A stretch of 57,418 nucleotides of DNA, filler included, from Sphacelaria rigidula (lineage: Eukaryota), in assembly GCA_964200075.2 (NCBI GenBank). It is 6 parts of 6 records of this genome, joined end to end, with 100 filler letters (N's around TTAATTAATTAA, not from the genome) between each part and the next. Parts side by side here need not be neighbours in the genome. Positions count along the whole stretch, not along the records: positions 9,588 to 19,074 come from CAXNAA020008376.1; 5 more parts are not named here. One strand, written 5' to 3'. Positions 8,986 to 50,263 of this stretch are shown in pieces. A program made the position numbers and the translations under genes. The notes below the pieces were generated by a model. It had not been told where the DNA came from. It did no database searches and saw nothing but the letters and a program-made list of their open reading frames with translations. Every line of letters starts with the position of its first letter. Positions within the stretch are counted from its first letter, which is position 1.

Positions 8986-9487
8986 GTATCATACCCGCGA
9001 GCGATGCGTCTTCAACCTTGAACACAACGGCACGGTATGTCCGTATTTTACTGTGCGATGGGTCGCGTGCACATCAAGGTAGCATGTGCAAGCTAATGCC
9101 AGTTTGAATCCAACGATGATTTTGTTACATCGCGCGGCGGATGGTAATCCGTCAGCGGGCTTGTCTCAGGGTTAGCCCACTTTTTTTATCGAAATCCTCG
9201 GGCCGACAGAATCTGGTGTCTTGACATTAATAATCAAACCCCTTCTCATATCTGCGATTTACTTCTTACTTCCGTATGGGGCATCTGATGTGGACTCCTT
9301 CCGTGGTCACAGGCGATGTACACAAATAATAAGGAGGCGTAAAGGAACTCAAATGAAAAATAAATTAGGACAGAAAAATCAGAGAAGCCAGGGGGGTCTC
9401 TGGATTGGAAATGACCAACCCCAACCCCCTACGAGCCCCACTTTTGGGCCCCATTTTTCCAACAAAAACACGTAAATTTCTTTTTTA

Positions 9488-9587
9488 NNNNNNNNNNNNN
9501 NNNNNNNNNNNNNNNNNNNNNNNNNNNNNNNTTAATTAATTAANNNNNNNNNNNNNNNNNNNNNNNNNNNNNNNNNNNNNNNNNNNN
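9488..9587. other. Artificial contig spacer
   Basis: 44 N + TTAATTAATTAA (stops in six frames) + 44 N. Confidence 0.98.
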
Positions 9588-9719
9588 TGGAGAAAGCACT
9601 GTTTTAGGCTTGAACCTCATCTCGGAGTTAAACCTCAATTCGCACAATTTGTTGTTAAGACCTGTTATGCGCGAGCTTTGACGCATGGCGGTAATCTGAA
9701 GAGACATGGGACGATGTCT

Positions 9720-12700
9720 ATTTGACTTCTACGACAGCGTTTGTGACGGATGTTCCCCATTTGTGGAACCCGTTTCTGTCTTCTTTGGCTAGACACGACG
9801 CTTTCAGCCGCCACGCCAATAAATGTATCAATTGCAATATACGAGGCTACAGCATGCGTGGCTGTGACAATTCATGCATAAATGCATTCGATCTCATGAA
9901 CTCTAAACTACAGAGCAATGAACCCGCGTGGCGCCGCCGGCAAAAATGAACGCGCGACTATAATACTCCAAATCGAAATAATCGCCACCATTTCTCGAGG
10001 CAACTATTGCTCTCATCGCGAGCGCCGACAAAACAACCACCATAGTTCTGGCACTCGCCAACGAGATATCCCGCACCAATCATCGTTTCGCTGATAGACA
10101 CCAGCGAACGGGACCGACACATAGCTCGAAACCCAACACCAGAAACTCGGTATCACCACAATCCACGTCTCGTGGAGAATTCAACCTTGAACACTTTGGT
10201 ACACTCCACGGTGCTCTGGCCTACCAAAAGAATACTCAAGCAATCGGAGCTGCTTACCACCTACGATAAAATGGTTGTGTTGGTATTACACTCTCCGGCG
10301 ATCCTCAACTTTAAGATATTGCACTAGTTCGCCGAAATGGCATGCCTGCACTTCTGGGTCATTATCTTGCCGAATTCTTACCCCATATTGGTGCACCAGC
10401 CGACACAGCACATTTTGTCTCGGCGGGACAACAACTCCTGCATCTTATGGGACATGCGAACTTGGAACCAGGCAATATTTTAGGAATCGCCGCCGCTCCC
10501 CTGACGCACATCCCATTCGTGATGTGTGTAACAGAGCCTGCCGAGCCCGACGCACCATCCCCAACGGAGTCAGTCCATTGTGTCGATGAACCTTTTTTCG
10601 ACCTCACCTCTACGACTCCTCCCCAGATCCATACCGTGGATCCTGCCCATTCAAATTCCGATCCTCCTGCTGAAGTGCTTCAACGCTCATCACCAGATTC
10701 TCGGAATAGTTTCTTGAAAATGTCGAACCAACTGCCGCCACACATGCGTGATATCAATTTGACCTTCATGGGCCCGGGTGGGAATCAGCAGTCATCCAAG
10801 AACTCAGTCATGTCCTACTATAGTACCAAGACCGATTTTCCCGATTCAAAACGGATCTTGGGCACTGCAAACGCTGCCCTTTGAGGTTGCACTTCAACTC
10901 GGGGTCTCGCCAATATTGTCGCGACCATACTGGACAAACCCAATCCCTACCAAAAAAGTGAATGTCATCTTAGATACATATTTGGGATCGAGATTGGTAC
11001 ATCATTCCTCCTTTCCCTGGGCCTCGCCACTTGTGGTCGTCTCCAAAAAGGATGGAAACATACGCATAGCCGTGAATTATCAACGGTCGAACTGCGTCAC
11101 TGTGATTGGTAAACTTCCAATCCCCCGCATTGATAACGTCTTCGACTCTATAGACAAAGGAAAAATATTTAGCAACTTCGACCTCATTTCTGGATTTTTC
11201 CAGAACGCTATCCGCCCTGACACAGTCCCACTTACCGCCTTCTGTACCTCGCCCGGGCTCTACGAGTGGCGTCAAGTATCACAAGGCGCTGCCACTGCCC
11301 AGGGATGCTTTTAACGCTTTATGCGACGCGTCCCCGATGATCTCGAGCACATCATCATGTACCTAGATGACGCTACCGCTTTCGATGCCTCACCTTCTGA
11401 ACACATCCGCACTCTACGAGAATTTCTCTCTCGTCTACGCAATCACGACTTGAAACTGTCTCCATCCAATGCTCGCTTGAGCGCAACAGATTTGGATTCC
11501 TGGGACATTCCATTTCGCCAGCAGGCCTGCATTCGGATGCAAACAAAGTCAAAGCGATGATTGACTTGCCGATGTCAACCAATATTTCTCAACTTCGTTT
11601 ATTGTTGGGCGGACTATCCTACTACCGCAAAATTTTGCCGAACGTGTCCAAACGGATTCGCCCCCTTCCTTACTGAGTCACTCAAAAAAGGAGCCGTGTT
11701 TACCTTCACCACCGATATGAAGAACATCATTAGCGAATTGCTGAAATCGCTTACCGAAAAGTCGGTTCCCTGTTTCTCTGGTTAGGAGGCAGTGCGAGAT
11801 GGCTCTCGCCTTTTCCAACAACACACTGACACCAGCACATACTGATTCGGAGGAGTTGTGAATCAACCACAGGTTGACGGCTCCATTCAGCCCATCCTCT
11901 ACACCACCCGTGCTACCCTGCACAACGAGGCAAACTGGAGCCCGCTAGAATTGGAAGGCGGAGTAATCACCTGGGCCATTAAGCGCCTCCGACAAAATTT
12001 GTTCCACGTTCCATTTGAGATCTACACGGGTCATGGGGCACTCGAACAACTCGCCAAGGTTGGCAAACACAACCCGCGTGTACAACGTGTACAACGATGG
12101 TTGGACTTTCTAACAGCGTACCAATATACCATGAAGCACCGTCAAGGCAAAACCAACGGAAACACTGACCTTTCCCGACTATCCCTGCCGCCTACGGCCC
12201 CAGATTCCAGCCCGGCTTGCCGTTTAACGGAGCCCGATGAATCTGGGATTTGCCCTATAAGACGTTTATAACGCCCGATCATGCCCTTGACCTACAGTGC
12301 CCAGAGACTGGTACGCACATGGGCGGTCCTCGCCCTCTACCATATGACGCCGTCTTGGGTGGGTCAAAGCCCACTACCTCCGATTCTGTCTACTTCCGCA
12401 CTTTTGGTACTCGCGCGAAGCTTTTCATGGTGACATCCTCGGTCATCCACCTAACCTCCGACAACACACGCTCCCGGTCTGCCGCCTGCACCCCGCCCCC
12501 GAGTGCCCCGCCGCCACTGATAACATCTACAAACCCTTCGAGCCACGCAGCACCGGTCCAATGGATCAGTACGCAACGCTCCGCGAAAACTACTGTAACG
12601 TACACCACGCACCGGGGAGAATATTCGCTGCGCACTGCTACAACCTCGCCGCCGATAACGGCGCCACCTACATCTAGTGCTCCTGAGCATGGAGCCGAGG

Positions 12701-15312
12701 ACTTAGATCCTACTCCCGGGGCAGATATTGACGTCGGTGTTTCTGCCCCGTCGCCTAGTTCCCCGCTGCCAACCCCACCATGTTTGGTCGGCTCTCCAGT
12801 GGAAGGTCAACTACGCGAGTTTTCCGCCAGCTACTCTCACCGCGAATGGGCCCGCGAACAAAACGCGGAACCTTTATGTCGCGCAGCCGTCCGGTACTTA
12901 CAGCTTGACTGTCCAGTCCCTGTTCCATCCGCCCTTCTGGCCTCGGTTGGCACACTGCCACCCCCGGATATCTCTAACGTATACGTACTCGTGCGTAAAG
13001 GCATCCTTTTTACTACGGATGAAGGCCTACTAGTACTCGTGCGTCACCCCACGCCTTTGACAGGCGCAATTTCCGTCTCAACCACGGGATGCCACGAACG
13101 ACTAGTAGATGACGAACCAACAGGCACACATGTCCCATTATGAATGCGTCCCTGGGCCATGAAAGGCTGTCACACAGACTTGTCATGTCACCTTGGCGTC
13201 ACCCACATCCTAGTGCTCTTGGAACGCTTCTACTGGTGGGTTGGCATAGAAATTTCCACCCACTTCTGGGTTCGACGATGCTTCAAATGCCAACCTCGAA
13301 AAACTTCACGGCAGACAGTACGCTGGCCCGTCATCTCTATGGGACTCCCCAACGCTCTGGGCTACCCTGTGTCTTTTGAATACTTTGGCCCTCCACCGAC
13401 CACAGGTCGCGGCAAGACCGACGTCTTACTCTTCACTTACCGCTTCAGCCGCCACGCGTCCATGTACGCGGTAACCACTGCAGATATCACGGCCGTCGGA
13501 ACGGCCGATATATTGATCCACGACTACGTTAAGCACTACGATTGCGTGAAACGCCCACGTTCATACAATGGTCAGCAATTTGCTTAGATCTTTCTGATGA
13601 ACTTTACAAGCTTCCGGGCATCCGGAAATTGCCACGAGCGCCTACCACCCTGATTGTATCGGTGGTACCGACAGAGTTAATCACACCATGGCTCAGATGC
13701 TTTCTGTGGTTGCCAATGACCGCCAAACTGACTCGGACCTACACCTGTCGCACATCATGTTGTCCTACAACAACTCGGTTAACGCCGCCACAGGCCTTTC
13801 CCCGAACGAACTTCATCTTGGACGTTACCTTCGGCTGACCATCACCGTGTTTGAGCGACACACGTTCGATGGCCACCAAGGATTGGATTAGGATCAGATA
13901 TCCTATCACGAGCTAGCACATTCACGACAACGCAAAGCGTTTACCCTCGTGCGCGACCAACACGCCATCAACGCCTTGCGCCTCGAGAAATTTAAACTGC
14001 TCTCTACAACCTCATGCAAAAACACCCCAACTGAAAAATTGGCGTTTGGATTTGGATCTACAACAATTGTCGACCATCCGCCAAGGCACCAGCAAGGCAG
14101 CCAACGAAACGATTTAGAAGAAAAAAATGTCCCTCAACTGGACAGGACCATTCAAGATCCTGGCAGTCGGACCATCGCCATCATCACCGGATGATAAACC
14201 CGTTGGTGACAAAGTGCTCTATCTCGACCTGCCTTGCTATATCCAGGGCAAGGACACCAAACCCCGCGTCTTCGTGCACAGATGTGAACCCTGCAAGAAC
14301 CGGCATGATCCTAGTGACTTGTCCAAGTACTTGCCTGCCGGACTCACTCAGTACGTTCTCAACAGCTACTCGGGCAAGTCCCCGCCCTATCATGTTACAA
14401 CTGACGACGTGACGGAACAGCCCCCCCGCCTGACCGTGTTCACTATCTCTGGCCACCAGACACTCGTGGTCGAGGTAGCAATATTGCTGTCATGTATAAG
14501 ATACACTGGCAAAGTGTTCGCGGAGCATCTTGGGAACGCGAATCCGATCTTCAATTGCACCGCCGTGCAATCCTCCTGTACTAGACGCAATCTCAACATC
14601 AGCATCTTGCTCACAACAAGAAATGTTGCAACATGCGTCGTGGTGCAGCAGCCCGCGAACTTCATCGCGAACAAGGACTACGCTTTGTCGCCGATAGCTA
14701 CGAACTTGTACCCACCAAACCTTGCGAGGCGAAGTTCTTCGCACCCCAGCGAATACTACCCGAGGGCAGCTACCTTTGGTTCAAAGGCAGCGACAACCTC
14801 TGGTGGTTGGGCCAGACCCACTCCGCTAACCAGGTTTCTGCCGACAAGTATATCGTGCGCTTCATCGATGACCCTGGACCCATCCAGCTCAAGCTTCGGC
14901 CAGCACGATACATCACTAGCCCATCTGCCCCGCCCGGATCCCGGTGCCTTCAGCGACTCAAGTCAAAAGGACTTCGCCGCGATGTCCAGCGCAACATCGA
15001 TCACACCCACGACGTCCACGCACCGCTTTGAACCACGCCTCTTCACTGCAACCCCTTGACTTATTTAGTATTTTTCCCTTCCTTTTTCACTAGGACCCGA
15101 CTCTACGACATACACAACAAAACTATTTATATCGGACTACAATCGGACACTACTAGGAGCTACCAATCATCTACGACTACTGGACTACTCGGAGCCACCA
15201 ACCATCTACGACTACTGGAGCTCTAGTACTCTCCCTTTGGCTGGCGCTCGATCTCGTTGGGTCACCAATTTCAGATTTTTTTCCCTTGCTTCCGACCAAC
15301 ATGCCTTGGTCG
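9720..15312 (+). mobile_element. Decayed Ty3/Gypsy (chromovirus-like) LTR retrotransposon, gag-pol pseudogene
   Basis: Gag knuckle CINCNIRGYSMRGC (~9824; H to Y); RT SSFPWASPLVVVSKKDGNIR, FDLISGFFQ, IMYLDD (~11355); RNase H NEANWSPLELE...FEIYTGH; integrase HTDLSCHLG...CFKC, decayed D-D-E core, WTGPF (~14140). Order RT-RH-INT. Many stops and frameshifts. Confidence 0.93.
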
Positions 15313-15402
15313 TGTGACGGTTTTAGAGACAACCAACTAGACTACTGACCGGTCAGCGCTGACTGCTCAGTAGTCTAGTTGGTTGTCTCTAAAACCGTCA
15401 CA
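15313..15402. repeat. 90-bp near-perfect palindrome (TG...CA), copy 1
   Basis: TGTGACGGTTTTAGAGACAACCAACTAGACTACTGACCGGTCAGC|GCTGACTGCTCAGTAGTCTAGTTGGTTGTCTCTAAAACCGTCACA, 43 of 45 pairs. Confidence 0.95.
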
Positions 15403-15742
15403 AAAGTCAGCCGTGGGGGATCAATCCCCGTCACGTTCACTCCGAGGAGGGCGACTCCCCTTGCCAGCGCTCTATCGACTGCCATCAGGACCTCTAGTAT
15501 TATCGCTTTCACCGTATCCTAAAGTTACTCGTCTACCCCACTCATTCCAAGAGTGTGTACACTGGGGTCCCTAGCAGTACATTCCACACATAGCCACCAG
15601 GCTATACCCCACCCTTTTTCTTTTGGGCCAATTTTTTACAGAGATTTTCTTTCTTTGGGGCAAATGTCTTATAGAGGTCTTCTCTCCTCTTTTTCCTTTG
15701 AAGGAAGTGCGTCCGACGGGAATCGAACCAGCGACTAACTTT

Positions 15743-15831
15743 TGTGACGGTTTAAGAGACAACCAACTAGACTACTGACCAGTCAGCGCTGACTGGTCAG
15801 TAGCCTAGTTGGTTATCTCTAAACCATCACA
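15743..15831. repeat. 89-bp palindrome (TG...CA), copy 2
   Basis: Same sequence as copy 1 with a few changes; perfect core CTACTGACCAGTCAGC|GCTGACTGGTCAGTAG. Confidence 0.95.
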
Positions 15832-16894
15832 GTCGCTACTGATATTCCATTTGTTTTCTTCTCTGGAATACCCCAGGTAGAAGTTGTGCTCCCTGTTGTG
15901 CCTCCCTGGTTTTCCCCTTCGTTTTGCTAGGACGCCGAAGCAATTTGCGCTTCTTCGTTGATCGCTAGCACGCAGAAATAGTTTGTGCTCCCGCGTTCCG
16001 AAGCAGTTTGTGCTCCCGCGTTTCAAAGCACTTTTTTCTGCTCCTCGAAGCAGAAATAGCTCCCTTATTATGAGGTGTGGGAGTGTAGGTACGGGAGCGC
16101 TTTCCTCAGGTGTGCCTCACTAGCCGCTCATGACTTTACGAGTAAAGAAAAACCTTAGCTTTCGCTGCTTTTGAGGATAAATCCTCGCAGCTGTAATAGA
16201 GGTTCGTCTGGGTGGATTTGTGTCATGAGGAGGATATTAGCCTGTTGTCATGCCGCCTCAGACCCGTTGACGGGTCTAGCTAGATTGCATGGCATTTCAG
16301 CTCATATCAAGACTGCAGGTCTGTCCAGAGTTGGTCAGATACGAGTATGAAATAGTATATAGCGAGGGATGATAGTCGATGGGACCGCCTTTGGTGATCA
16401 CAACGCTTCATCCCGACAAGGAGACTCTCACATCTCCGGTGAGACTAGTTGATCGAGCGAGAGAGGTTGAGCACTGCGGATACTTAGGAGATCAAGGAAT
16501 GAAGCATTCCAGAAGAGATACCATCATATCTACGCGTGGAACTGACTTTGATACCTGGAATACAGAACACTGTCAGCGTCGTTTGGTACGCTACATAATT
16601 GTTCTTTGCTTCTCAGCTGGTGTGTCAGGCCTCTTGTTTGGTCCTCCTGCTTTGCCAGTAAGGCGTGTTTACCATGCACCCGGCCTGACCCCATTATATC
16701 ACGCTATATGAGACGAAACGTAACATTGCTTTTGTTTAATGCGATGAACGCAACGTGACGTGACCGTTACTTTTTCAAATGCAACTTTCACGTAACGTTA
16801 ACTTTTGAACGTGCCAAACGGAACGAAACGTGAACGCTAAATTTTAGAGACGTTATGAACAAAACGTGAACGTGAAAGTGTAAGGTGTAGAGCC

Positions 16895-17144
16895 TTTCGG
16901 TATTTCCCCGTCTGGCATCATAGCACTTTCCGCACATTCTGTCATCTTCTTCATCATTCTCCACATTTTTCTTCTCTGATCCAAGCCTCCAGAACCTTTT
17001 CCACAGCCCATTTCTCCATACTGTGTCATGGGCCTATTGTACGTCCAGGACGAAACAGGATATTGTCAGCCCGGCGTCTTTCCTACCTTGAATAATCTCA
17101 CCTGATATGTAAACATGGTCTACGCAACTAAGGTTTGGTCTAAA
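16895..17144 (-). mobile_element. Non-LTR (LINE) reverse transcriptase fragment
   Basis: FRPNLSCVDHVYISGEIIQGRKDAGLTISCFVLDVQ*AHDTVWRNGLWK, frameshift, KMWRMMKKMTEC; matches the GFR..RS..D and LD..KA(F/Y)D.V motifs of LINE RTs. Confidence 0.88.
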
Positions 17145-17878
17145 TTAATACTTCACAGCGGACCCTGAAAAATGGGGTCCATCTCATGAATGACGTTCAA
17201 GTGGCATACCTTTTTCGCAGGGATGACGCGAAACAGTAACACAGAGCGAAACCATATTTCCCCTCAGAACTCTCCCACTGTGAATCATCAGTTGTGGCTA
17301 AATGCACCGAACGACTGCGGTGTACACGCGTGTCGATGACGATACCACCAGAGAGAGAAGCAGTGACAGAGAGGAAGCTCCTCGCCCGTGTCCGTTGTGT
17401 GCCCTCGCTGGGCGATTACCAATCGCTCGAGAGACTGGCATCATGCATGTTACCAGCACGTACCGGATTTCTCATGCGCCGGTAGGTATCCCCGAAGAAC
17501 ATCGAGCTGCGGAGAGATTACGTCTCTTTGTCTCTGGAGATCACCACTGCGAGGATCGATTTCTGTCCGCCTCTCTTTTTGGACAGGACGCGCCTCTTTG
17601 TGCTGACAAACAGGGCAATTTTCCCGTCGCCGCTACCACTGTTCTCTGTCACACACATGCCAGCGAGCACGGTACGCTGCGGAAAAAATAACAGATGATC
17701 CGATTTTAACTTGGGGGTGTTATTCGTCGTTGATTTTACCGTGGCATATCTGACCATCATGGCGCCCGACCACAAGAGCCTGCCACAGGCTAGGTGGGGT
17801 TGGGTGTGTGTGTGAGAGAGAGATCAAAAACTTGTGGAGACCTCCTTGACATGCGGAGTGGAAAACGATACCAATGAT

Positions 17879-18618
17879 GGTGACCTAATTGCTGCTAGCG
17901 TGGTGCAGAGGGATGCGTCAGCTGCAATCCGGAGCTTTCGTCGCTCTACTCTACTGGCTTCCGTCTGCACAGGTTATGCCGTGAGCTCACACACGGTAAC
18001 AACATGTGATTATGTACCTAAATTCGGAACAGCTACTGTATAAAAACAAAACAGTTCGGTTTTCGAAACTACGTCAAGATCATCGAAATGGCTCTTGTTA
18101 CCCGAGGAACTGCGGCTTCCCCATCCCTCCATCAGGTATGAAAGAAGGACGACAGAGTTTTTGGGAGTGCATGTGACGCCCACGGGGGAACGCAGAGTTT
18201 CCCGTGTATAAAAGCATCCGTTTTCCTACCTGCAAACAGTTTTATGCCCATTGCTTTCTAATAAGAACGTCAAACAGTCGATTTGTGTTCTGTACTGTAC
18301 CGATTGGCGGATGCCAATACCAGCAACGTTTGGTGATGCTGTTGCACAGTATCTTCGAACGTTTGACCGGACCCAAAGCGGACACTTTCCCTCCGGTAAC
18401 AAAAGCCATTTCAATGATCTGGGCGTAGTTTCGAAAACCGAACTGTTTTGTTTTCATGCAGTAGCTGTTCGAACTTCAGGTACATAATAACATGTTATTA
18501 CTGTGTGTGACCTCTCGACATACGCTCTGCAGACGGAAGTCAGTAGAGTAGAGCAACGAAAGCTCCAGATTGCAGCTGACGCACCCCTCTGCACCACGCT
18601 AGCAACAGTTAGGTCACC
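17879..18618. mobile_element. Mutator-like non-autonomous element, ~230-bp TIRs
   Basis: 17879-18108 is the inverted complement of 18388-18618; G...C ends; 9-bp TSD ACCAATGAT / ACCAATGAA. Confidence 0.8.
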
Positions 18619-18680
18619 ACCAATGAACAGCGGATTCTCGAAAATGGGGTTGAAAGCAAAAATGAGGTTCAACTCAAAAC

Positions 18681-19004
18681 CCGTGCTTTGCCTGACCTAA
18701 GTTCATGATAAATTACTTTCATATGGACCACCCCATACCACCCCATCCCTCCCGACCTCCCTAAACCTATTTCGGGATATTTCTAGCCTTCCCTTCCCCC
18801 AAAGGGTATGTGCGAAAGCACAGTTTTGTCCCCATTTCGGGGTAAAAAAAAGACGTGTTTTGTCACCAGAATCGTGCTTTCGCACATACCATTTGGGGAA
18901 ACGGAAGGCTAGAAATCCCTCGAAATAGCTTTAGGGAGGTCGAGAGGGATGTGATGGTCCGTATGAAAGTCATTCGTCATGAATTTAGTTCAGGGAAAGC
19001 ACGA
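18681..19004. repeat. Foldback (inverted repeat) element, ~140-bp arms
   Basis: CGTGCTTTGCCTGACCTAAGTTCATGA...GGTATGTGCGAAAGCAC pairs with GTGCTTTCGCACATACC...TCATGAATTTAGTTCAGGGAAAGCACG; no clear TSD. Confidence 0.75.
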
Positions 19005-19074
19005 CACTTTCTACGATAGCCCCCCCCCAAAACCAGCTAAAAATGTCACGAAAACAATGGCCATAAAGCGCCTG

Positions 19075-46529: not shown

Positions 46530-46995
46530 CTCTATCTGTACTGTCTGCATTGCTTGCAAGCAGTGTCTTGGGTGCGTGTGTGCGTGTTTCATTCAGGAGG
46601 ATATAGAAGAGAAGCGGGCAACGTGCAGTGCAGACAGCCCAGGACTATCAGTTCTCTCTTCTTGCAGTGCGACGTGAAGAGGACTTCGGCAACGTGCAGC
46701 TTTGTGCTGTCTGCACTGTCCATGAGCGTGCACGCAACTCGGTTGTGCACCGTACCAGGCAGTTCCGTCGTTGATCCCTACCATGAGAGAAGATGCAAGT
46801 TTTCGCCAACAAAAATAAACAAAGCACACCCAACTACTGCAGTGTATCTATCGCTGGGCTCAACTCGTGCCCTAGGCTGCAGGATTGCGGTGGTGGCTGA
46901 GAATGAGTTGAATGGGGTTTGTATGGTCCTGTGAACAGGTGTTATCCGGCGTGGTGGCCTGTAAGATAGGATTCAATTGCCGCTTCGTGCCTTAC
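46530..46995. repeat. Dispersed ~460-bp repeat, homologous (opposite orientation) to 49655-50110
   Basis: For example GGCGTGGTGGCCTGTAAGATAGGATTCAATTGCCGCTTCGTGCCTT pairs with AAGGCACGAAGCGACACTTGACTCCTATCTTACAGACCACCACGCC. Confidence 0.85.
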
Positions 46996-47380
46996 GGTCA
47001 CGCGATAAAAAAACAGGGGAAAAATTTGGAATTTTTTGTCATCTGACCGTTTTTCACTGAACATCAGTGTGTGGCCCCATTCAGCCAAAAACAGAAGTGC
47101 GGCTAGCGGGAAATGCAAAGTTGATCCAGGACGGTCTCAACGAGTAGAGCAAGTCATTCCAAGGCGTCAACATGCGTCTAGCCCTCTTTTCGGGCGTAAA
47201 TCGACGGAGAAGGGCCCAAAAGGCAGATTTGAACAGGAATTTTGAACGGCTACCATTAGAGTTGGCCTAAGACACGCCCTGAAAGGGGGAAAAAAGAGCG
47301 AACGAACGGATCAAACATTGAGGCGACCTAAGGAAATGTACGTAAACAATGGTTGGTACTATGGAGATGCCGCCAATTCT

Positions 47381-47500
47381 AACGCTAACCCTAACCCTAA
47401 CCCCGACCAACGCATACCGAGAACCCTCGGGCAAGGGGGGGCAGAGTGTTCTCTAGGCAACGTGTGCGTTGCCAGAGCTCAAATCGACGCCCTTCAGCTG
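47381..47500 (-). repeat. Repeat carrying (TTAGGG)n telomere-like units
   Basis: CTAACCCTAACCCTAACCCCGACCAACGCATACCGAGAACCCTCG; homologous to 50410-50520. Confidence 0.65.
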
Positions 47501-47832
47501 ATTTTGGACCAAAACACGGTCTGGACAAGCTAAGTCTACTGCTCACCACTGCTCACCTGCCCCAGACCATGAATTTTCTCAGAACTTTCTTGAATCTAAG
47601 ATCAAGTAAAATCGAGTACCAACCATTACACAGGCACCGTAGGTGAGGTAGGTACCCGGTACCGGTGTTTGGGACATCTCATACCCTACCGATACCGGTC
47701 CAATTCGGTATTTTCAAATGTCATATCTACGATACCTACGATCCCACGGTATTTCGAGATTTCAATACCTACCGTACCCGCCCAATCCGGTATTTTCAAA
47801 ACTCATACCTACGATACATACGATACCACGGT

Positions 47833-47932
47833 NNNNNNNNNNNNNNNNNNNNNNNNNNNNNNNNNNNNNNNNNNNNTTAATTAATTAANNNNNNNNNNNN
47901 NNNNNNNNNNNNNNNNNNNNNNNNNNNNNNNN
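47833..47932. other. Artificial contig spacer
   Basis: 44 N + TTAATTAATTAA + 44 N. Confidence 0.98.
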
Positions 47933-48181
47933 ACCCCCGTTCTCTCCACCCTAGTGGCGACAGTCGGACCATTACACCACCGGGGCGCGGCGGCTGTTGA
48001 GGAGAATAATGACCAGTTCGATAACTCAGGACCATAAGAATGGCCACGATACTCCCGCAGGACCGTTTCTCGATCTAGAATTTTTCCTGGGGACACGCAT
48101 GGTCGGTGCGGGGAGCTTCCTCGACGACCTGGGCATCCCTACTCCCCGCTTGCTCGAAAAAGAGCTCCCCCCCTCCCCTCT

Positions 48182-48365
48182 ATGCTCCGCCTCGAAGGGT
48201 ACGCGTGGTCACTCGTCAAACGTCCAAGGCAAGCAACAAGTGAGTACCCCCCCCCTCCCCTCTCCTCACTCTCGGCGCGCGCTCCCATGACAACAAAAGG
48301 GGACTGTCTGTGGTCAATGGTCGAACGACTAAGGCAAGCAACAAATGAGTACACCCACCCCCCTC
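48182..48365 (+). mobile_element. Two LINE family A 3' ends; the first has a 15-bp C-rich TSD
   Basis: Copies at 48182-48248 and 48308-48365; CCCCCCCTCCCCTCT at 48167-48181 and 48249-48263. Confidence 0.75.
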
Positions 48366-49473
48366 CCGAGGTTTCTCGGTATGCCTCCGTTGGGGTAGGT
48401 TTGTTCGAAATAATAAATCTCCGAGAAAGTTCTTCGCGATACCGAGTGATTACTAACTTCGCTATGGAAGGTCGATATTGGTCAAATAAAGGTACACTTC
48501 GGATATATTATGAGAGCAAAATATATTAGGAAAAAAATGAGCTTGGTAGTTTTTGCTGGATACAACTACGCCACTGACGGACAAAATAGGGTACTTTGCG
48601 AGGCCCTTGTTTCCCGCGGTGCTGTTCGGCCCTACATCGTGCTCTTCTTTCACGAAAGTTGGTGGAAATACTCTCTCTGCATGGGCTGTGGGTGCCTTGC
48701 ATTCGCGTGGGATTATTCCCAATGGTTTGGGCCTAGCACGAACAGCTCCAACTTCGGCGGTCACCTGCATCTACGTTGGGCTGAAATGGGTGGAATACCC
48801 ACTTGTGTCTTTTGCCCTTTATTATGCCCTGTTGATTCTCCATACCAAATTTGAAAGCCCAACACTCAAAATTGAGGAGAGAGTGGGCCTGCAACCTGTA
48901 GATCCGCTACTAGGCTGATCCAGCTCGTATGCCTTGGGTTGGGGGTAGCGTTAGGGTTGAACCATAGACCGCAAATCCCTGCTCCCAGATGGAGGCAGAT
49001 CGACTATTCCACATCTGGCGTTCAGAAAACTTGTTTCTTGAATGCACAAAACATACTTTTTTTAATGAATGTGTGGATGTTGGGCTTACACGTAGAAAAC
49101 AGTACCAGAGAACCCCTGGCCGGTTTTTACCTTGCAGTCAAGCGCGTGCAGTCCATATGTATCTTGTATGTTATATGTCTTCACTGGACACAACGGCAGA
49201 AAAGACTCAGCGTACTATCGCTCTCCACTGAACAAAGTCTACTGCACGCTGCTGACTTCTTTGCATATAAGAGTGTTGCACAACAACGCTCCAGTGTGAA
49301 GCTATATTGGTGACAAAAGAAGGATCAAGCAGGCGGCGAAGACTCCGAGCAGAGTAAAAAACACGTTGATTGTGTCCATCTTAAGCTATGGTCGAGTGGT
49401 ATCGACCAAAATGAAATATGGCTAAGACTACAAGGTAGTCCATCATCTGTTGTTCATCTGAGGTGTGCATACA

Positions 49474-50263
49474 GAGGGCGTGTCTCAGCACTTTTTTTTT
49501 CGATCGAAAAAGTGCGGTCGTATTTTTTTCCTCCATCTGGTACGTCAACCGTATTTCTGTTCCTAGAAGGCTTCAACTCATTTTTATAATTCGTGGCGCG
49601 CGAAGAAGGAAAAAACAACGAAGCAAAACCTCTTCGATCGAAAACATGCGGTCGAAAGGCACGAAGCGACACTTGACTCCTATCTTACAGACCACCACGC
49701 CAGATACCACCAGTTCACAGAACCATGCAGACGCCACACAACTCATTCTCAGCTACCACCGCAAACCTGCAGCATGGAGCACGAGTGAGAACAGGGATAG
49801 ATACACTGCTGTAGGTGGGTATGCTTTGCTTATTTTGTGTTGGCGAAAACTTGAGCATCTTATTTCATGGTAGGGATCAGCGACGGAACTGCGCGGTAAG
49901 GTGGGCAACCGAGTAGCGTACACGCTCATGGACAGTGCAAGCAGTGAAAATTGCACGTTGTACAAGCTTTTTTCACGGTCCTTTGTAAGCAGAGTGAACA
50001 GATATTCCTGCTCTGTCTGTACTGCACGTTGCCCGCATCTCTTTCACATCCTACTGTACAAAACACGCACACACACACGCACTGCAAGCAAACAGTGCGA
50101 ACGAGAGACCAAGTACCGTTCCATGAACTCCACTGCCTTTTTTTCGATCGAAAGCTTGAAAATTCGCTTGGACCGAAGTCGACAAAAATGAGCAAGTTTT
50201 GCTTGTATCAATTCCACCGCCCCTTTTTCTTCGATCGAAAGAAATGTGCCAAGACGCGCCCTG
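49474..50263. mobile_element. hAT-like MITE with TTCGATCGAA subterminal motifs
   Basis: GAGGGCGTGTCTCAGCACTTTTTTTTTCGATCGAA ... TTCGATCGAAAGAAATGTGCCAAGACGCGCCCTG; TSD not convincing. Confidence 0.55.

Follow-up and report, generated by a model that had tools for sequence, protein, structure and literature searches.

The window analyzed here, a stretch of 57,418 nucleotides from Sphacelaria rigidula, includes at positions 9588-19074 a single contig of 9.5 kb from a fragmented genome of 244 Mb. Runs of N with TTAATTAATTAA spacers lie at 9480-9600, 19075, 28661, 38247, and 47833, at a spacing of ~9.6 kb; a window spaced in this way is made of separate contigs joined together, and neighbors across the spacers are therefore not genomic neighbors. 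On this contig lies a degenerate copy of a Ty3/Gypsy LTR family, probably brown-algal and present in many copies, here termed lineage X. The family encodes RT, RNase H, and an integrase with a GPF motif in Ty3/Gypsy order, and this order is present in the window copy. Its parts are as follows:

9669..10146, + strand: gag remnant (blastn against long copies)
10763..12268, + strand: decayed reverse transcriptase and RNase H (Pfam RVT_1 E = 0.0042, below the cut-off; RT_RNaseH E = 7e-16)
13147..13880, + strand: decayed integrase zinc finger and catalytic core (Integrase_H2C2 E = 7e-9; DNA match to copies with an open core)
14035..14300, + strand: integrase SH3-like/GPF domain, with WTGPF at 14139-14153 (translation; alignment of copies)
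14421..14584, + strand: predicted chromodomain-fold domain with one of three cage aromatics, broken in the window copy by a frameshift at ~14460 and a TAG at 14582-14584
14585..14752, + strand: conserved basic linker (AlphaFold2 secondary structure, charge count, conservation)
14753..14959, + strand: predicted Tudor/SH3-fold barrel with an extra C-terminal strand and two of four PHF19-type cage aromatics (fold, dN/dS)
14960..15031, + strand: conserved C-terminal tail and shared stop codon (the stop is common to 45 of 49 copies)
16221..16374, + strand: start of the 3′ LTR, the only part of it placed (75% match to the 5′ LTR of a copy on contig C1212)

The 5′ part of the window copy lies beyond the contig edge (9588), and a gag-end/protease region of ~1.3-2.2 kb found in other copies is absent at ~10150. 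Homologs of the window integrase carry PF00665 and PF17921. The full-length element is represented by a single insertion (contig C413) of ~12.6 kb, with ~410-bp LTRs that are 94-96% identical and lie 12.2 kb apart; an identical 4-bp word on both flanks of this one copy represents a target duplication. The 3′ non-coding region of the window copy holds two copies of an ~81-nt palindromic repeat (15313-15393 and 15743-15823), with a tRNA-like sequence beside them near 15710. Long inverted repeats at 46569-50081 (arms up to 135 nt, 2.7-3.2 kb apart) and 17872-18625 (236-nt arms, 282 nt apart) are likely DNA transposon ends.

Six-frame translation recovered both peptides of the original prediction, assigned there to a chromodomain and a Tudor-like domain, letter for letter in a single + frame, interrupted by the TAG and closed by a TGA at 15029-15031. 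The GPF motif lies in another frame, which the frameshift joins to that of the tail. The 148-residue protein encoded by 14585-15028 returned 150 scored matches among 931 candidates in its own genome, at 69-87% identity (self excluded). A sample of 50 copies, comprising the 30 best-scoring and 20 hand-picked for divergence or long frames, was examined further. At the position of the window TAG, 41 of the 50 have TGG, seven have a stop (four TAG, including the window, and three TGA), and two have another codon. Stops at the other Trp codons number 0-5 among 47-50 copies, making this site the highest of seven, in a sample retrieved with a query downstream of the TAG codon, which selects against stops further down. 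In 14/50 copies the frame is open from a point before GPF as far as the common end, and in 5/50 it is open from the integrase core; 45 of 49 copies terminate at the same codon, and identity between subfamilies is 0.75 before this stop and 0.53 after it. The TGG majority, the open copies, and the shared stop indicate that both the frameshift and the TAG of the window are decay, and the TAG had been correctly read as a mutated TGG. In other copies, a single reading frame with a common stop runs through integrase, SH3/GPF, chromodomain-like domain, and second barrel.

Pairwise Nei-Gojobori comparison of two subfamilies (9 x 8 copies) gave the following dN/dS values along the protein: SH3/GPF 0.12, chromodomain 0.10, linker 0.27, and barrel 0.16; that of the integrase core (0.03) is affected by saturation. 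Copies of the same subfamily, partly chosen for open frames, gave 0.2-0.7. Mismatch by codon position in the barrel is 0.17/0.10/0.37, an excess at third positions. These ratios indicate that the second domain is under purifying selection. As originally proposed, the Tudor-like domain belongs to the same protein as the integrase; the pattern named as refuting it, a conserved stop after the chromodomain with no constraint downstream, is contradicted by the TGG majority and the constrained barrel.

A profile search with the tail returned 511 clusters at E<=1e-3, and 38 of 169 matches (redundant cluster members counted) span both domains. Six proteins of 507 candidates share 48-51% identity over 89-100% of the tail, one of them labeled Nemacystus decipiens. 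Relatives from the profile search also include proteins of Ectocarpus sp. CCAP 1310/34 with the chromodomain half, in three gene models that stop short of the barrel; these named relatives in Nemacystus and Ectocarpus agree with the brown-algal lineage proposed originally. The name Tribonema was absent among 26 proteins looked up (150 of 511 matches listed), and the 148-residue piece, as query against longer proteins, matched none of 705 candidates. Runs guessed to be RNA carry lineage X contigs, and may be DNA. Separately, long gag-like proteins (P0091/P0177 and P0103) are fused in frame straight to a Tudor-like barrel, without RT or integrase; these are perhaps non-autonomous derivatives that keep the barrel.

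An AlphaFold2 model of the tail, built from an unaltered copy and 99 relatives (pLDDT 89, pTM 0.81), predicts a chromodomain that is joined through a basic helix to a Tudor/SH3-type barrel, all packed as one unit whose rigidity is suggested by the pTM. Within the linker, a long helix (14618-14668) is followed by a short strand and a second helix, and all tail segments except the last are net basic. Residues 3-59, with a three-strand sheet and C-terminal helix, resemble the Chp1 chromodomain (Z 7.0, rmsd 1.7, 53 aligned), and many chromodomains rank next. Residues ~105-195 are predicted as an SH3-like five-strand barrel and match Tudor domains (Z 5.0-5.6), with ties to PWWP (5.5), TraI (5.9), and KOW (4.8-5.1). 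Structure scores for the tail are all middling: no comparison of the model reached Z>=8, and neither Foldseek nor the viral fold library returned a match at E<=0.001. The high-probability local Foldseek matches are to the PHF1/PHF19 Tudor (44 residues, rmsd 1.7-2.0) and chromodomains. All seven PDB profile matches at E<=10 are Tudor (three) or chromodomain (four), each on the expected segment; the best is the PHF19 Tudor (E = 0.03), and the chromodomain matches include MPP8/Swi6.

Among 100 lineage X members, Pfam Chromo is found at E<=1 in 19 (best 1.7e-4), and the barrel matches are to the myosin N-terminal SH3 (14 members, best E 0.0054) and Agenet (4 members, best E 0.02), all of these matches being weak; no Pfam Tudor family is listed for these members, and the window's own fragments, including the 148-residue piece, match Pfam for neither domain. 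Comparison by hhalign of the barrel with the element's own SH3/GPF domain gave 0.5% from shallow alignments, which lends no support to an origin of the barrel by duplication of that domain. ESM Atlas feature matches are all under 0.9 and serve as leads only; its structure rows, none of which reaches the naming bar, list TraI domains as well as two clusters of Gypsy Pol. The cluster in the first row, a Gypsy Pol in which 93% of members have Pfam Chromo, aligns with the barrel over 78 residues (TM 0.61) in a stretch assigned to no family, and may represent a distant lineage that shares the tandem. An SH3-fold barrel in the tail is well supported by the model. That it is Tudor rather than another SH3-fold barrel is likely, though only weakly favored; the original assignment holds for the fold and for the best matches (PHF1/PHF19), whereas it is weakly resolved against PWWP, KOW, TraI, and myosin SH3.

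Cage residues are W50/Y56/F74/Y80 in the PHF19 Tudor (PMC7105160, excerpt) and Y24/W45/Y48 in the HP1 chromodomain (PMC3350952, excerpt). Over 159 rows, with redundant cluster members dropped and the barrel register taken from the PHF19 profile alignment, the three chromodomain sites are aromatic in 2/46, 80/88, and 5/90 relatives, as had been seen for the first and third sites in the window; one of the three residues of a classical (group I) cage is kept. The four barrel sites are aromatic in 0/118, 90/110, 83/102, and 0/98, so that two of four are kept, and a cage-type Asp is retained in 83/100. With two of four and two of three sites non-aromatic, a classical methyl reader is unsupported, and so is the extra methyl-lysine/arginine reader first proposed, no relative having an aromatic at the sites equivalent to W50 and Y80. 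Several other aromatics are strongly conserved (positions 122, 123, 130, 146, 166, and 177: 101/118, 95/119, 95/113, 88/101, 70/84, and 64/72). Group II chromodomains of plant chromoviruses likewise lack the first and third aromatics, and their ligand is given as unknown; these are single domains in another host group, whereas lineage X adds a helix and barrel (PMC3350952, excerpt). The Polycomb-like Tudor of PHF1/PHF19 is the best profile match and superposes over 44 residues, but two of its cage aromatics are missing in lineage X, where an extra strand and helices are predicted, and H3K36me3 binding is unsupported.

Two further Gypsy lineages were recognized in the genome, with integrase cores 23-26% identical among X, Y, and Z (X vs. 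Y, 23%); in an unrooted integrase tree the three form well-supported groups separated by long branches, a topology that cannot order events. A genome search with PF21743, the PTM-type Tudor, gave 99 matches; of the 30 loci listed, the majority represent lineage Y tails, a weakly matching integrase being present in 13 of them; we equate this family with the CDD model cd20401, which we take to be the AtPTM-like Tudor model. PF21743 is found in 24/24 members of lineage Y (23 of them selected through it) and in 0/100 of lineage X, where this curated profile detects no PTM-type Tudor. In lineage Y (L079:1222-1674:+, L071-L100, L103-L122), the PTM/DIR17-type Tudor is preceded by a predicted chromodomain fold: in a model from 24 sequences (pLDDT 82, pTM 0.44), a linker of low confidence connects this fold (Z 6.6, rmsd 2.7, 59 aligned) to the Tudor. 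Pfam did not detect the lineage Y chromodomain, and a PDB profile search with lineage Y tails gave a single irrelevant match. One copy forms a 10.7-kb tandem unit. In lineage Z (L126-L152), the integrase stops ~24 residues past a single chromodomain. No profile similarity between X and Y was detectable by hhalign (whole tails 1%, Tudor-Tudor 3.5%, chromo-chromo 0.2%). A common origin of these tails finds no support in these values; their dissimilarity is consistent with convergence, without proving it.

The available text of PMC12477816 describes four Gypsy lineages in Ectocarpus, three with chromodomains and outside the chromoviruses; Gypsy-10_Ec32 (11.5 kb) carries a Tudor domain and is called the first TE with one. 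Gypsy-10_Ec32 and its Tribonema homolog resemble lineage X in being brown-algal Gypsy elements with a C-terminal Tudor on Pol, but the description available gives the Tudor only (CDD cd20401) and mentions no tandem (PMC12477816). Compared by description rather than sequence, lineage Y is the probable counterpart, likelier than X: one Y copy has a 10.7-kb tandem unit against the 11.5 kb of Gypsy-10_Ec32, and, on our own equation of the two Tudor models, Y has a PTM-type Tudor. Ectocarpus ECR-1 and the NADAR lineage share with X a chromodomain fused to the integrase C-terminus, with no downstream barrel mentioned in the excerpts (PMC11541908, PMC12477816). ECR-1 keeps all three cage aromatics in a 6.6-kb element with a single gag-pol ORF (PMC11541908, PMC12477816, excerpts), whereas lineage X has lost the cage, ends gag at a stop (6/6 copies printed), and spans ~12.6 kb. 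The Ectocarpus NADAR lineage (IV) has NADAR at the Pol N-terminus (PMC12477816, excerpt); NADAR was found on no lineage X copy and was not seen in long copies, the only two genome matches both being on contig C4, where L101 (C4:35363-35809) is the only strong one, within a 720-aa frame. Lineage X, with a member in Ectocarpus sp. CCAP 1310/34, may be one of the three chromodomain lineages described in that excerpt. The word "tudor" is absent from the available portions of PMC11541908 and 10.64898/2025.12.07.692804, and that of 10.1101/2021.11.30.470311 lists Chromo and PHD fusions to TEs. Literature searches, limited to papers outside subscription, found no chromodomain and barrel in tandem on a Gypsy element. 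The supposition that the arrangement was undescribed therefore stands for the tandem and not for its parts: Tudor on Gypsy is already published for this algal group, and the chromodomain-plus-barrel tandem, apparently present in two lineages, seems not to be. This suggests that sorting the lineages into "chromodomain" and "Tudor", as published, may overlook a combination of the two folds in at least two of them.

Targeting domains of Gypsy elements sit at the integrase C-terminus, as does the tail here (PMC11541908, excerpt), and even the ECR chromodomain is described as having an unclear part in targeting (10.64898/2025.12.07.692804, excerpt). We lean toward a role for the lineage X tail in tethering integration to host chromatin without a classical aromatic methyl-lysine cage. 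The C-terminal ~205 residues of the integrase, in which SH3/GPF is followed by the chromodomain fold, basic helix, and Tudor/SH3-fold barrel as a predicted unit, would tether the integration complex to a nucleosome surface, DNA, or a chromatin protein, and, like the chromodomains of other Gypsy elements, would bias the choice of insertion site. As for tRNA-gene targeting, 49 loci, a weak test as mostly element-internal DNA, contained no tRNA genes.

The tail could instead be a true methyl-mark reader, in which conserved aromatics of barrel, linker, and chromodomain form a composite cage for a brown-algal repeat mark, e.g., H3K79me2 or H4K20me3. Such a rebuilt pocket is plausible because repeats in Ectocarpus, where H3K27me3 is absent, bear H3K79me2 and H4K20me3 (PMC7784034, excerpt); the six conserved aromatic positions and the cage-type Asp would suit it, as would the best sequence and Foldseek-probability matches, which are to methyl-lysine-binding PCL Tudors. 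However, the canonical sites lost from both domains weigh against it, and the remaining aromatics can be core or interface residues, leaving this reading unlikely. We hold similarly little expectation that the barrel is a nucleic-acid-binding or assembly domain (KOW, PWWP, or a second integrase-CTD-like domain) acting in the intasome, cDNA, or packaging with no role in site choice. The fold ties with KOW, PWWP-ssDNA, and TraI domains, the Atlas rows with TraI and Gypsy Pol (under the naming bar), the net positive charge, and the gag-like fusions P0091 and P0103 without integrase are in keeping with such a domain, but the barrel shows no profile similarity to the element's own SH3/GPF in shallow alignments, lineage Y has a Pfam-grade Tudor at the same place, and lineage Z ends right after its chromodomain, indicating that the barrel is not generally needed. 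That the downstream frame is non-coding 3′ sequence with a chance Tudor pattern, the protein ending at the TAG, is refuted and can be given almost no credence: the elevated stops at that codon (7/50) and the lack of a Pfam match to the 148 residues are outweighed by the TGG majority, mixed TAG/TGA stops, the shared downstream stop, the dN/dS of 0.16 with third-position excess, ~50% identity in other families, and a confident model.

Beyond the tethering role that we prefer, two deeply divergent brown-algal Gypsy lineages may independently have added a Tudor barrel behind an already cage-less chromodomain. By way of a composite pocket of non-canonical type, the resulting modules would read a chromatin state peculiar to this lineage, namely H3K79me2/H4K20me3 nucleosomes in hosts that lack H3K27me3 and appreciable 5mC, and so steer insertion; we consider this combination quite improbable. 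Retrotransposons of brown algae choose their sites in hosts whose repressive chromatin is unlike that of plants or animals. Lineages X (a conserved, compact, and expressible module of ~200 residues), Y (a differently built tandem), and Z (chromodomain only, a natural control) lend themselves to studies that compare binding and insertion sites three ways within one genome.

The gag-pol junction of lineage X, deleted in the window copy, has a feature of its own. In all six copies listed (L061:7082, L063:7382, L057:7100, L067, L051, and L065), which include both subfamilies, gag and pol share one frame and are separated by a lone TGA, the stop of gag, with C as the next base. Stop-codon readthrough is a possible explanation.
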